Sequence record: OR352935.1
Length of the DNA: 43,102 bases
Reading direction: 5' to 3' (one strand)
DNA from: Escherichia phage AV104
Shown: positions 2,767-26,973 of the stretch, piece after piece
How positions within the stretch are numbered: the first letter of the stretch is position 1
How the letters are laid out: each line of letters opens with the position of its first letter
The notes under the pieces: generated by a model
What the model was told of the DNA's origin: nothing
What the model saw: the letters and a program-made list of their open reading frames with translations, nothing else
Database searches by the model: none
Made by a program: the position numbers and the translations under genes

Positions 2767-3843
2767 ATGCTATTAACTTTAACGCCACAGGGTTTATCTA
2801 TGAGCTTACTGACATCACTAATCAGCCACCAGATTTGGCTGCAACGCAACGCATCTGGCGAAGTGAAAGACCTCGCACCGTTCATTCAGGAGATGCGGGA
2901 TGAAATCAAACGGCAGGTGCTGTTGTTCGGCGACGACGGGAGAAGCACCGCGCGTCTCAATAAACTGTTACGCGACTTAGAAGAAGCACTGACAGGGCTA
3001 GCCGGAGACTGGCAAACAAAGCTGACCGAAGACCTTAAGGAACTGGCAGCGTATGAGGCTGAGTGGAATGTGAAAACACTCACGGCTAACGTCAACGCTG
3101 AATTTGTTACGCCTACCGCCGAACAGGTGTGGGCCGCTGCCGAGTTTCAGCCCTTATCATTAAGTGACAAGCCCGTTGATTTCGCCAAGCTGATGGATGG
3201 CTGGGGTGAAACGGAAGTCGCGCGCCTGGTAACCGGCGTTAAGATGGGCTTTGTCCAAGGCCAGACGACACGGCAGATTGTTAAGAATGTTGTTGGCGCT
3301 GGTGGGCTGGCGGACATCTCCGAGCGTAACGCAGCTACGGTAATCCGCACCGCGCTGTCGCACGTGTCCAACGAAGCACGTAACGAGACGTACCGTCAGA
3401 ACGACGACATCATCGAGAAGTACGAGTGGGTGTCAACGCTGGACAGCCGTACCAGTACGATTTGCAGAGCCAGAGACGGGATGACGTGGGAAATTGGTAA
3501 AGGGCCGATGCCCCCAGCCCATCCGAACTGCCGGTCGTGCACGGCTCCGGTAATCAGTTCCGAGTTCGACTTCCTGGATAAGGGCGCAAAACGAGCGGCT
3601 AAAGGAGCGGACGGCGGTACTCAGGTAAGCACGGACACCACCTATTACGAGTTCCTGGAACAGCAACCGGCATGGTTTCAGGATGAAGCACTCGGCCCGG
3701 TTCGCGGTAAGATTTTCCGCAACAGCGGTATATCGCCGGAAGAGTTTCGCGTAATATCTGTAGATGGTTTCGGGAATCCGCTCACGCTTAAGCAGATGGC
3801 GGAACTCGATAAACGTGTTGCTGATTATCTGAAAGGGGATTAA
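2767..3843 (+). CDS. head morphogenesis protein (Mu F-like / SPP1 gp7-like)
   Basis: 358 aa; conserved HPNCRSC motif (PAHPNCRSCTAPV) typical of the Mu F family; position after portal; start could be the in-frame ATG at 2800. Confidence 0.7.
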   Translation: MLLTLTPQGLSMSLLTSLISHQIWLQRNASGEVKDLAPFIQEMRDEIKRQVLLFGDDGRSTARLNKLLRDLEEALTGLAGDWQTKLTEDLKELAAYEAEWNVKTLTANVNAEFVTPTAEQVWAAAEFQPLSLSDKPVDFAKLMDGWGETEVARLVTGVKMGFVQGQTTRQIVKNVVGAGGLADISERNAATVIRTALSHVSNEARNETYRQNDDIIEKYEWVSTLDSRTSTICRARDGMTWEIGKGPMPPAHPNCRSCTAPVISSEFDFLDKGAKRAAKGADGGTQVSTDTTYYEFLEQQPAWFQDEALGPVRGKIFRNSGISPEEFRVISVDGFGNPLTLKQMAELDKRVADYLKGD

Positions 3844-23747: not shown

Positions 23748-23929
23748 TTCTTACCATCACTTTTCTTGAAGCTACGTTTTATATCTGGCAGCGTGTAGCA
23801 TCTCGACTTCTCATATTTCCCGTCAGAGCTTACCAAAACAAAGCTGTTGCCGTCGTTTGATATGTACTCAATGGTGAAAGTATTGAACGAATGTACGCTG
23901 TATATTTCATCGCCAACATTAAGTTTCAT
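23744..23929 (-). CDS. hypothetical protein
   Basis: 61 aa ORF coupled to helicase gene. Confidence 0.45.
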   Translation of the reverse strand: MKLNVGDEIYSVHSFNTFTIEYISNDGNSFVLVSSDGKYEKSRCYTLPDIKRSFKKSDGKK

Positions 23930-25383
23930 TTCTTACCTCGTCTCTTCATGTAATTAAGCAACTCTTCCTGTACTGATTTCTTCTCGTCTGTACGCGCGGA
24001 AACAACCTCATCCAGCGTGTCTTTAGCGACGATGTGGTAGAGGAACACCGGGCGCTCGTGCCCCGCCTGCTTCTGTCGCACCGGGCCTATGCGCTCAACA
24101 ACCTGCAAATAGTGCTCAAGGTTCCAGCCTTGCGAAATAAACGCCAGATGATGGCCGCCGTCCTGTAAATTGAGGCCGTGTCCGGCTGACGCGGGATGAA
24201 CGCATAAAATCTCGATTTCACCACGGTTCCACGCTTCCATCTGCTTATTACCCTTAGCACCTTTGGCGAACGCCTGCGCCTGCGGAAAACGTTTCAGGAT
24301 GCGCTCCAGTTCATGCTTGAACTGATAGGCCACCAGTAACGGCGCACCCTGCAACTCTTCCACAATCGACTCAAGCGCGTCCAGTTTCGTGTCGTGCACT
24401 TTCTCCCAGTCTTTGGTTGCTTCCCCGTCTGGCCCCGATACATACACGGCACCGGATGCAATCTGGAGGCACTTCGATGTCTTCGCTGCCGCGTTAGCGG
24501 CCTCAACTTCCCCGCTCTCGAGTTCCGCAAATAACTTTTCCTCCATATCGATGTACGCCTGACGCGCCTTCTTCGGCAGGTCGATTTCAACCGGAACAAT
24601 AATCGGCGCTTCACACCCGAACCACTCAGCGGCGTCAATCGTGAGGCTTATGTCTTTCATCTTCTGGTGAATTTCATTATCCGCGCCCGGGCGTGCGTGG
24701 TACTCTCGCGCCATAGCCGATTTGCCTTTCTGTACCGAGTTAAACCAGCGGTCGGTGAACGCTGTGTATGAAGAACCGAGGCGCTCACCCGCATCTATAA
24801 ACCAGTTCTGCCCCCACAAGTCTTTGAGGCCGTTTGGTGAGGGTGTGCCTGTAAGGTTAATGAAACGCTTAACCTTTCCGAATGCCACCTTACTGAGCGC
24901 CTTTGCTCGCTTGCTTCCACCAGAACGGCTACGGAATGATTTCAGCTTCGTGCTTTCATCTGCGACGATAACGGTAAAAGGCCAGTCGTCTTTGCCGTAG
25001 TAGTCAATCAGCCACTCGATAACTTCGTAGTTCGTACACACTACGTTAGCATCGGACTCAAGCGCCGCGATGCGGCGCTTCTCCGAACCCGTTGCATCGA
25101 CGACACGCAGACACGGGAATCGCCATTTCTCTTGTTCTGCGGGCCATGTGCCGGACGCAACGCGCAGCGGGGCGAGGATTAACACGCGGTCGTCATCATT
25201 AAGCCGACCATTACGTAACAGTCGGTTTAACGCCCACAGTACGCTGCCGGTCTTCCCGGCGCCCATGCTTGCCCATATGTTACAGCGATTGTGCTGCAAC
25301 ATGAACGAGGTCATGAGCTTCTGGTACTCGCGCCTTTGAAACTTAGACATGATTGGCCTCATGAACTGCTTTTGCGAAACCAC
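23926..25383 (-). CDS. SF2 (SNF2/DEAD-like) ATP-dependent helicase
   Basis: 485 aa; Walker A SMGAGKTG, DExx box VIVADESTKL, C-terminal helicase motifs. Confidence 0.8.
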   Translation of the reverse strand: MVSQKQFMRPIMSKFQRREYQKLMTSFMLQHNRCNIWASMGAGKTGSVLWALNRLLRNGRLNDDDRVLILAPLRVASGTWPAEQEKWRFPCLRVVDATGSEKRRIAALESDANVVCTNYEVIEWLIDYYGKDDWPFTVIVADESTKLKSFRSRSGGSKRAKALSKVAFGKVKRFINLTGTPSPNGLKDLWGQNWFIDAGERLGSSYTAFTDRWFNSVQKGKSAMAREYHARPGADNEIHQKMKDISLTIDAAEWFGCEAPIIVPVEIDLPKKARQAYIDMEEKLFAELESGEVEAANAAAKTSKCLQIASGAVYVSGPDGEATKDWEKVHDTKLDALESIVEELQGAPLLVAYQFKHELERILKRFPQAQAFAKGAKGNKQMEAWNRGEIEILCVHPASAGHGLNLQDGGHHLAFISQGWNLEHYLQVVERIGPVRQKQAGHERPVFLYHIVAKDTLDEVVSARTDEKKSVQEELLNYMKRRGKK

Positions 25384-26026
25384 GCGGGGTAAGGCTGCGT
25401 ATTGTTTTTGTCCTCACCGATTTACCGCCTAATTTATTGTGTTGGTCGGAGTACCCATCAACCACGGCGACACATGATTTAACGGGCATCACAAAACCGT
25501 TACCCGCCCAAATACATGTCTTCTTAGGGTACGCGTCCCGCGGTTTTATGTATTCGGGGAACATTGGGTGCGTGTCGTCTTCGGGTAAATAGCCGCCGTA
25601 TTCGTACGGATTGAACGAATAGTCAGGCTTGCGCCATAAAGACGAAAGAACGCTAACCGGGTTCTCAATCATATAAGGTACGTTGTACTTTTTAGCCAGA
25701 CGCGCAGCCACTTTGCATGTAATCACGGCCTCTACCTGAAAAGTTGGATTCTTCTTCCGCTTCGTTTCGAAATGCGCTGCGCCGCTAACAGCTAAATCTG
25801 TGCACGGAGGGAACGCAAAAATAATATCCGGCGCAACCTCGAAGTCGAATTTATTGTCAATCCACGCGTTTATATAGTGGATGTTCTCGTGTTCAACTTT
25901 TGCGCCCAATCGCGCGTAGTCGCCGTGGTCGGCACCGTCGTAGTTGAAACAATAGCAAGTATGGCCCGCTTCCGCCCACGGTTGGGCCATGAGGCCCGAA
26001 CCGTCGAACAATGACCAGATAATCAT
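25343..26026 (-). CDS. compact C5-cytosine methyltransferase-like protein
   Basis: 227 aa; motif I LFDGSG, motif IV FPPCTD, ENP (motif VI-like), C-terminal RSLTPRGFAKA (motif IX/X-like); no room for a large target-recognition domain. Confidence 0.5.
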   Translation of the reverse strand: MIIWSLFDGSGLMAQPWAEAGHTCYCFNYDGADHGDYARLGAKVEHENIHYINAWIDNKFDFEVAPDIIFAFPPCTDLAVSGAAHFETKRKKNPTFQVEAVITCKVAARLAKKYNVPYMIENPVSVLSSLWRKPDYSFNPYEYGGYLPEDDTHPMFPEYIKPRDAYPKKTCIWAGNGFVMPVKSCVAVVDGYSDQHNKLGGKSVRTKTIRSLTPRGFAKAVHEANHV

Positions 26027-26214
26027 TTCGCCACCAGAACTAACTCTTTACGCCCGAACGCCGTAACGTTACCGGTTACGTCTTCGATAACCAGTTTACC
26101 GTTCGACTCTACGTACACCGTATCAACGGCAACAGGGCGACGGGTCTTAACATTGAAAATCATGTCGCCCGGTACGATGTCACGTGCTGGTTTGCGGTCG
26201 TATTCGTGTTTCAT
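26023..26214 (-). CDS. hypothetical protein
   Basis: 63 aa ORF in operon. Confidence 0.4.
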   Translation of the reverse strand: MKHEYDRKPARDIVPGDMIFNVKTRRPVAVDTVYVESNGKLVIEDVTGNVTAFGRKELVLVAK

Positions 26215-26509: not shown

Positions 26510-26824
26510 TTATAATTCCTTATATTGTTGGGGTATGTGCTTACTATAATAGTCTGCTATTAGGGTGTCAATCTGTTTTATCGAACCAACGACAAAAACA
26601 TTCGCGCCACGTTTACGCATCCGCTCGTGCTCGCGTAACTGGTGTGGGTCTGGCTTCGTGCTTTCATCTTTCTTAACCTCAACGAACCAGATGATGCCGC
26701 CGGGGAGGATTACCAACAGGTCGGGCGCTCCGTTTCGGCCCTCATACACTATCTTACGAACGAGGCCCCCCAGGGCCTCGAATCGGTCTTTCGCGTATTT
26801 CTGTACGCGGCCCTCTTTAGTCAT
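26510..26824 (-). CDS. VRR-NUC domain nuclease
   Basis: PD-(D/E)XK-like motif (GAPDLLVILPGGIIWFVEVKK ... HQLREHE); ATG at 26824 coupled to upstream tiny ORF (track start 26839 is TTG). Confidence 0.7.
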   Translation of the reverse strand: MTKEGRVQKYAKDRFEALGGLVRKIVYEGRNGAPDLLVILPGGIIWFVEVKKDESTKPDPHQLREHERMRKRGANVFVVGSIKQIDTLIADYYSKHIPQQYKEL

Positions 26825-26973
26825 GGGCGTAGAACCCAAGTAAGGAAAGCCCCTCCTAGAACGGCAACACCGACAAACTTAAAGAACAGGCCATAACAGA
26901 ACATCGTGGCTATTCCCGCCCCGAGTAACAGTGCAAGCATGGTTACTATTGTCCAAAATACAAACATTGTCAT
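26821..26973 (-). CDS. tiny membrane protein (50 aa)
   Basis: hydrophobic MTMFVFWTIVTMLALLLGAGIATMFCYGLFFKFVGVAVLGGAFLTWVL; ATGA overlaps on both sides. Confidence 0.35.
   Translation of the reverse strand: MTMFVFWTIVTMLALLLGAGIATMFCYGLFFKFVGVAVLGGAFLTWVLRP

Follow-up and report, generated by a model that had tools for sequence, protein, structure and literature searches.

How does a DNA methyltransferase choose its cytosine when it has almost no room for a target-recognition domain (TRD)? The question is raised by a protein of 227 amino acids (aa) encoded by Escherichia phage AV104 (record OR352935.1), whose 43,102-nucleotide (nt) stretch, analysed in full, is called the window here. An earlier note had described the protein as C5-methyltransferase-like and lacking a conventional TRD, and had proposed that it either modifies cytosine broadly or takes its specificity from a partner. 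We found that it belongs to a known, annotated and partly characterised family of orphan phage methyltransferases that is widespread in coliphages; the new point is a mini-TRD in a mosaic patch of ~150 base pairs (bp), which occurs as two alleles on genes that are otherwise about 90% identical. We put the probability that the gene encodes an active, stand-alone, S-adenosylmethionine (SAM)-dependent DNA (cytosine-5) methyltransferase of the phage 'Dcm-like' family at about 80%, judging from the sequence and its homologs.

The compact catalytic core

A relative of the protein has been studied experimentally. The 'Dcm-like C5 cytosine methyltransferase' of phage KarlJaspers (Bas06), 236 aa long, aligns with the window protein from end to end at 57% identity (E 5e-96), and Wang et al. 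used phage K42, whose genome is 95% identical to that of Bas06 (bioRxiv 10.1101/2023.08.16.553469; a reference list that cites the work gives its published form as Cell Rep 2024;43:114857). In all four of their escapers from retron Ec86 the 711-bp K42 dcm gene was either disrupted or had a mutation 9 bp ahead of the start codon, and K42 Dcm alone in E. coli MG1655 was toxic only with Ec86 present (bioRxiv 10.1101/2023.08.16.553469). By liquid chromatography–mass spectrometry, wild-type K42 Dcm raised the 5-methylcytosine (5mC) content of the retron's multicopy single-stranded DNA (msDNA), with a product matching the 5mC standard, and C82A/E128A/K175A/K176A K42 Dcm gave no such rise; 34 of the 35 Ec86-sensitive phages in the authors' collection encoded such a Dcm (bioRxiv 10.1101/2023.08.16.553469). 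The residues C82, E128, K175 and K176 align with C75, E121, K168 and K169 of the window protein, all of which are present. Formation of 5mC on DNA and triggering of Ec86 were seen with the homolog only, and it is by analogy that the window protein may share them. The gene and its motifs are as follows.

25343..26026, minus strand: predicted gene for a compact Dcm-like DNA (cytosine-5) methyltransferase of the PHROG 757 family; open reading frame (ORF) with ATG start and TAA stop, 227 aa
25994..26011, minus strand: motif I, L6-F-D-G-S-G11, putative SAM-binding loop after beta1; from the sequence and the model
25796..25813, minus strand: motif IV, F72-P-P-C75-T-D77, with the predicted nucleophile Cys75 (codon 25802-25804); by conservation, and aligned with C82 of K42/KarlJaspers Dcm
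25658..25666, minus strand: motif VI, E121-N-P123, ENV equivalent; by conservation, and aligned with E128 of K42 Dcm
25502..25525, minus strand: motif VIII equivalent, K168-K169-T-C-I-W-A-G175, strand beta7; aligned with K175/K176 of K42 Dcm
25352..25399, minus strand: condensed motif IX/X, R210-S-L-T-P-R-G-F-A-K-A-V ... N225, helices 204-211 and 215-225; by conservation and from the model

The ORF has abundant company. It matches phrog_757, 'DNA methyltransferase', over residues 1-226 (E 6.1e-86), and a 100% identical protein of Escherichia phage hz69 (UTQ77382.1) is annotated 'DNA cytosine methyltransferase'. In a set of 5.8 billion proteins we found 7,105 homologs at E<=1e-3, and there are 1,208 representatives of clusters made at 50% identity, of which 110 fall below 1e-30; tblastn placed the methyltransferase in 1,518 phage records, mostly Escherichia, Klebsiella, Salmonella and Shigella phages, with fewer matches in Vibrio, Enterobacter, Cronobacter, Citrobacter and Arthrobacter phages. 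Because homologs, representatives and tblastn matches are so numerous, ORF 25343..26026 is clearly a genuine gene and not a chance ORF. Nearly all members of PHROG 757 are 209-260 aa long, so that smallness characterises the whole family and is no sign of a truncated gene.

Catalytic motifs I (FxGxG), IV (PC) and VI (ENV) are represented by LFDGSG (residues 6-11), FPPCTD (72-77) and ENP (121-123), and the C-terminal motif RSLTPRGFAKAV occupies residues 210-221; each of the motifs listed in the earlier note is thus in place, and its description of the protein as C5-methyltransferase-like is upheld by the 57%-identical homolog, a DNA methyltransferase shown by experiment to form 5mC. E121 and P123 never vary in an alignment of 87 full-length family members, in which F72, P73, C75, T76, N122, K168, T170, R210, P214, G216 and A220 are at least 90% conserved; W173 is conserved as well, and K169 is the same in all ten of the close homologs that we aligned. 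The family consensus at motif I is SLFDxTG, in which the first Gly of the motif is not conserved. Across the more than 1,000 cluster representatives, the catalytic and SAM-binding positions are all kept under strong purifying selection.

To canonical C5-methyltransferases the link in sequence is weak. We found no sequence orthology to Dcm and no NCBIfam match for the methyltransferase, and solved C5-methyltransferases are linked to it by fold comparison only. The fold itself was evident in an AlphaFold2 model built from the 87-sequence alignment (mean predicted local distance difference test score 94.5, predicted template modelling score 0.91), in which the order of elements is that of a class I methyltransferase: strands beta1 (2-6, motif I), beta2 (23-28), beta3 (49-53), beta4 (68-71, followed by the Pro-Cys), beta5 (118-123, ENP), beta6 (136-138) and beta7 (170-175, KKTCIW), with helices at 15-19, 80-92, 96-114, 204-211 and 215-225, the last two corresponding to motifs IX and X. 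The top 50 Foldseek matches in the PDB were all DNMT3A/B/C catalytic domains, which assigns 184 of the 227 residues to a common catalytic core. The model shows a C5-methyltransferase catalytic domain and nothing else, most like DNMT3A/B; sequence identity to those domains is 12-18%, and DNMT3 differs in being DNMT3L-assisted or homo-oligomeric, in reading CpG and in having regulatory PWWP and ADD domains.

From the conserved residues and the homolog, we infer that the window protein is active and site-specific, with a chemistry of the usual kind. Cys75 would attack C6 of a flipped-out cytosine while Glu121 of ENP protonates N3, Lys168/Lys169 would stand in for the arginines of motif VIII, and the methyl donor would be SAM, held by the LFDGSG loop, Asp30 and Asp57. 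The same chemistry is attributed to E. coli Dcm and M.EcoRII (CCWGG; Shigella orthologue 3lx6/3me5), with which the protein possibly also shares its target.

The segment in the target-recognition position

The usual TRD position, from motif VIII/beta7 to motif IX, is filled by residues 176-203, that is, by 28 aa with one short helix (194-198) in the model, and no separate TRD domain was found between motifs VIII and IX. The absence of a conventional TRD asserted in the earlier note is borne out by these 28 residues. M.HhaI and M.HaeIII, by comparison, are 327-330 aa long, ~100 residues more than the window protein, mostly through a TRD of ~80 aa that separates motif VIII from motif IX; both also have the canonical GFPCQ and QxRxR motifs and belong to restriction-modification (RM) pairs.

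Across the family the segment in the TRD position is 22-41 aa long and is the most variable and indel-prone part of the protein, with an insertion hot spot after residue 187; such variability and indels would be the signature expected of a recognition element. The 31-residue beta6-beta7 insert (139-169, P.EYGGYLP..D.HP..P..I..RDAY.KK) is long, largely coil and highly conserved in the family, with P140 and Y166 invariant and D164 at least 90% conserved. The end of this insert and the short segment together form the mosaic patch, for which two discrete alleles were found over aa 157-167 and 182-197 among the 120 closest homologs.

25418..25567, minus strand: mosaic patch, aa 154-203, comprising the end of the beta6-beta7 insert and the ~28-aa putative mini-TRD; the window has allele type A, reading PEYIKPRDAYP ... 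GYSDQHNKLGGKS
Type A, PEYIKPRDAYPKK ... GYSxQHxKLGGKS: window, homologs P0001-P0003, JSE, rV5, a Vibrio phage and LIET2; 79 of 120
Type B, PDVIPARDAYVKK ... DNPGWAKLGGKS: including KarlJaspers/K42 and AAS23; 37 of 120

The boundaries of the patch are sharp. Thirty-four proteins (P0004-P0037) share 89-96% identity with the window protein outside it and 26-37% inside it; a DNA comparison with Salmonella phage UPWr_S5 gives ~90% identity over the gene and the sequence on either side, with a drop to 50-67% only in gene nt 461-610 (aa 154-203, ~150 bp). Further patch variants occur in other lineages, for instance F(F/C)W(A/G)WK in Webervirus and Phapecoctavirus. The pattern is that of one contiguous recombination tract that replaces exactly the place where a TRD would be, and the segment has the look of a TRD in miniature, not of one that is missing. 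Exchanged by recombination among genes that otherwise hardly differ, the patch behaves as a module for specificity would.

It is possible, if rather short of probable, that the patch is an exchangeable target-recognition cassette whose types A (GYSxQH) and B (NPGW) give different methylation motifs. If so, about 30-50 residues would set the specificity, and no C5-methyltransferase with sequence specificity would be smaller; exchange of the cassette between the genes of coliphages and those of Salmonella phages would alter the methylation pattern without loss of the enzyme, and the swap could track new restriction enzymes or end the triggering of methylation-sensing defences such as retron Eco1. 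On our main reading, whether or not the alleles differ in motif, the target would be read jointly by three parts, the ~28-aa loop-plus-helix after beta7, the catalytic loop and the conserved beta6-beta7 insert, a mode that we liken to the short TRD loop with which DNMT3A/B reads CpG.

We wondered which motif is read. For type B relatives the indications are of a Dcm-like CCWGG: mutation of the CCTGG in the msDNA stem, including outer C to A, abolishes Ec86 defence (bioRxiv 10.1101/2023.08.16.553469), and Pantoea phage AAS23, which encodes a protein 54% identical to that of the window (gp52), has EcoRII-resistant DNA, with gp52 matching the Shigella Dcm structure 3ME5 in HHpred at 99.7% probability (PMC8004638). 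A Dcm-like CCWGG would be the most likely motif for the window enzyme too; we infer this target, and the role of the patch in choosing it, more cautiously, and rate CCWGG specificity no better than even, since the window protein carries type A and the relatives that have been characterised carry type B. K42/KarlJaspers Dcm is alike in family, in compact size (236 versus 227 aa) and in being an orphan phage gene in the early or replication region; it differs in its patch (NPGW, type B, versus GYSDQH, type A, in the window) and in phage family (Drexlerviridae versus Guernseyvirinae), with an unlike genomic neighbourhood. Given the different allele, neither its target motif nor its triggering of the retron is simply transferable to the window protein.

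Several observations weigh against an active DNA C5-methyltransferase with a Dcm-like target. The score against Pfam PF00145 was 16.2 bits, below the gathering cut-off of 22, and covered residues 3-101 only; no more than 6 of the 87 family members match PF00145 at E<=0.01, and a search of PDB sequences with the single protein and with the 87-sequence profile gave no significant match. The canonical motif VIII QxRxR is replaced by P-K168-K169-T at the start of beta7. The CCWGG specificity of K42 Dcm was an assumption from the host Dcm and was not mapped (bioRxiv 10.1101/2023.08.16.553469), the EcoRII resistance of AAS23 DNA could come from the host Dcm instead, a point not addressed in that study (PMC8004638), and the BASEL study found no simple link of these genes with resistance to the RM systems tried (PMC8594841). 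The experimental evidence was all obtained with type B relatives (K42, AAS23), and it is precisely the putative recognition patch that sets these apart from the window protein; our literature search, which took in LIET2, Kagunavirus and Jerseyvirus, found no methylation data on the window protein or any type A allele. The KP27 'Dcm', considered as a source of type A data, was rejected as an unrelated canonical C5-methyltransferase of 303 aa.

The sub-threshold PF00145 score and the non-canonical motif VIII would also suit a protein that is no DNA 5mC methyltransferase here, be it an inactive relic, a Dnmt2-like enzyme that makes 5-methylcytosine in RNA, or one that transfers a carboxymethyl group from carboxy-SAM (Cx-SAM). 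The purifying selection on catalytic and SAM-binding positions argues against this, as does the homolog's product on DNA, which matched the 5mC standard, and DNA methyltransferases ranked above RNA methyltransferases in both fold searches; we consider this reading the least probable of the alternatives. An active DNA (cytosine-5) methyltransferase remains our preferred reading of the gene.

Breadth of specificity and candidate partners

With ~28 residues in the TRD position, and with DNMT3A/B, the closest solved folds, reading 2 bp only, the enzyme might instead have very relaxed specificity, methylating the majority of cytosines, or those in a context of 1-2 bp (CC or CpN, for instance), and so giving the blanket protection that the earlier note had envisaged. 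In the same direction, the K42 preprint mentions 'the toxicity of Dcm itself' on over-expression, by co-expression, in BL21 (bioRxiv 10.1101/2023.08.16.553469). The K42 homolog was nevertheless non-toxic in MG1655 without the retron, and changing the outer C of CCTGG to A cost it retron triggering. The recognition patch alleles (GYSxQH, NPGW) are discrete, conserved and exchanged intact, as is typical of sequence-reading modules, and the bacterial C5-methyltransferases studied to date are reported to have more than 1000-fold target specificity (PMC11879396).

Composition of the phage DNA bears on the same point. We compared observed with expected counts over the whole window (1-43102), and found strong avoidance of many C-containing 6-bp palindromes: TGGCCA (0 observed versus 8.2 expected), CAGCTG (1 versus 10.7), AGGCCT (2 versus 12.7), TCCGGA (2 versus 12.6), AAGCTT (2 versus 11.3) and GGGCCC (2 versus 10.3). 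Were all cytosines protected, such avoidance would be pointless, and its persistence unexpected. It also suggests that restriction avoidance acts alongside methylation. CCWGG, unlike GATC and many 6-bp palindromes, was not avoided (89 versus 108.6), which is a further, indirect hint of CCWGG as the target; CCGG, GGCC, GCGC and CGCG were also near expectation, and the figures cannot separate CCWGG from other, 4-bp C-containing sites. GATC was extremely depleted in the window (9 versus 152 under a maximal-order Markov model, ratio 0.06); hz69, the nearest relative, has no Dam-type methyltransferase annotated. CTAG was also low (24 versus 69.8).

The arguments against broad specificity are indirect. 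Since a YmC-type short motif such as CmC escapes McrBC, which needs RmC, the lack of toxicity in K-12 is compatible with a short motif. We nonetheless regard blanket modification as unlikely, and the earlier note's suggestion of it finds no support in the non-toxicity of the K42 homolog, its need for CCTGG, the EcoRII resistance of AAS23 DNA and the continued avoidance of C-palindromes. A short but specific target remains the reading that we favour.

A partner could supply what the core lacks, and the neighbourhood offers two candidates. By its nucleotide identity the window represents a Kagunavirus-type (Guernseyvirinae) E. coli siphovirus, from a coliphage genus that is well sampled; the 3.3 kb round the methyltransferase gene are 96.5% identical to Kagunavirus PDP21P8 and 96.2% identical to hz69. 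The replication operon runs in the order DNA polymerase A, small ORFs, VRR-NUC nuclease, two small ORFs, methyltransferase, SNF2 helicase.

26023..26214, minus strand: upstream 63-aa ORF, whose TGA stop overlaps the methyltransferase ATG (ATGA); operon context
23926..25350, minus strand: downstream SNF2-type DNA helicase; NCBIfam SNF2-family matches, start from the hz69 annotation and the sequence
26510-26839, minus strand: VRR-NUC-type nuclease gene, 109 aa, two small ORFs upstream of the methyltransferase

An 8-nt overlap (ATGTCTAA) joins the start of the helicase gene (ATG, 25350-25348) to the methyltransferase stop, on which account the two would be translationally coupled; the arrangement as a whole suggests coupling of the methyltransferase to both neighbours inside the replication module. 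The VRR-NUC-type nuclease (26510-26839) gave no NCBIfam match, and its gene is labelled 'restriction endonuclease' or 'Holliday junction resolvase' in related records.

This coupling would be consistent with a core guided by the overlapping SNF2 helicase or the upstream 63-aa protein, as the earlier note's second proposal would have it. Helicase genes adjoin or lie near the methyltransferase in Guernseyvirinae, Dhillonvirus-type phages, rV5 and Drexlerviridae, and a BFVD search found the compact fold embedded in two much larger proteins from uncultured phages, A0A6J5SE15_1 (1,397 aa, named 'Helicase/UvrB, N-terminal') and A0A6J5NPY6_2 (1,126 aa, uncharacterised), at TMq 0.66-0.68 and 23-29% identity; the former could be a natural methyltransferase-helicase fusion reminiscent of DNMT5.

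Comparison across lineages gives a different picture. In an all-against-all BLASTP of ORFs within +/-3 kb of the gene in eight lineages (window, KarlJaspers, JSE, rV5, Sushi, a Vibrio phage, tuntematon and LIET2), the methyltransferase was the sole shared family. The adjoining helicases are not mutually homologous at E<1e-4, and in four lineages (JSE, tuntematon, the Vibrio phage and LIET2) no helicase adjoins the gene; nor are the small ORFs upstream of it related, the 63-aa ORF of the window being dissimilar to the one that precedes the KarlJaspers gene. Plasmid-expressed K42 Dcm is active alone. Some close relatives, moreover, appear to retain the helicase without the methyltransferase: in one record the alignment covers only 79% of the region and the methyltransferase is absent from the feature list. 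Salmonella phages gave 332 DNA matches to the region versus only 109 protein matches, and the methyltransferase gene appears to be accessory. With no neighbour conserved in all eight lineages and a K42 homolog that works by itself, the proposal of a partner for specificity was not sustained, and we hold partner dependence to be very improbable. The data fit better with a stand-alone enzyme.

Relatives, fusions and consequences for the phage

Longer members of the family (292-453 aa) were scanned for fused DNA-binding domains, and none was found but one HNH insertion and one sub-threshold winged-helix-like match. The HNH endonuclease domain (PF13391) lies at residues 250-298 of a 348-aa member (P0237) whose methyltransferase match is split in two, which suggests a homing-endonuclease insertion or fusion.

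Two further observations concern where the family has been recorded. Thirty-seven records labelled Campylobacter phage hold the methyltransferase by tblastn, and 20 records so labelled, with host C. jejuni, have a megablast match to a T1-like coliphage region (L003:39000-42000); these look like mislabelled or contaminating coliphage sequences rather than true Campylobacter phages. Klebsiella phage KP36, described in 2013, has EcoRII-resistant DNA, for which, with no phage cytosine methyltransferase reported, the host Dcm was credited (PMC3620542). Webervirus Sushi, also a Klebsiella phage (L006), carries a gene of the compact family at 2989-3681, and annotation at the BLAST level of 2013 would have missed this family in KP36-related Webervirus phages.

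In the phage, the enzyme would mark newly replicated DNA at a short specific motif, and the mark would blunt restriction. The cost may be that methylation betrays the phage to methylation-sensing defences such as retron Ec86/Eco1. Phages with this methyltransferase may be sensed by that retron, which is native to BL21, a consideration for the choice of propagation host and for host-range prediction. The family provides a natural minimal C5-methyltransferase scaffold and, if the patch sets specificity, would offer a compact system for studying and engineering how cytosine methyltransferases read DNA.

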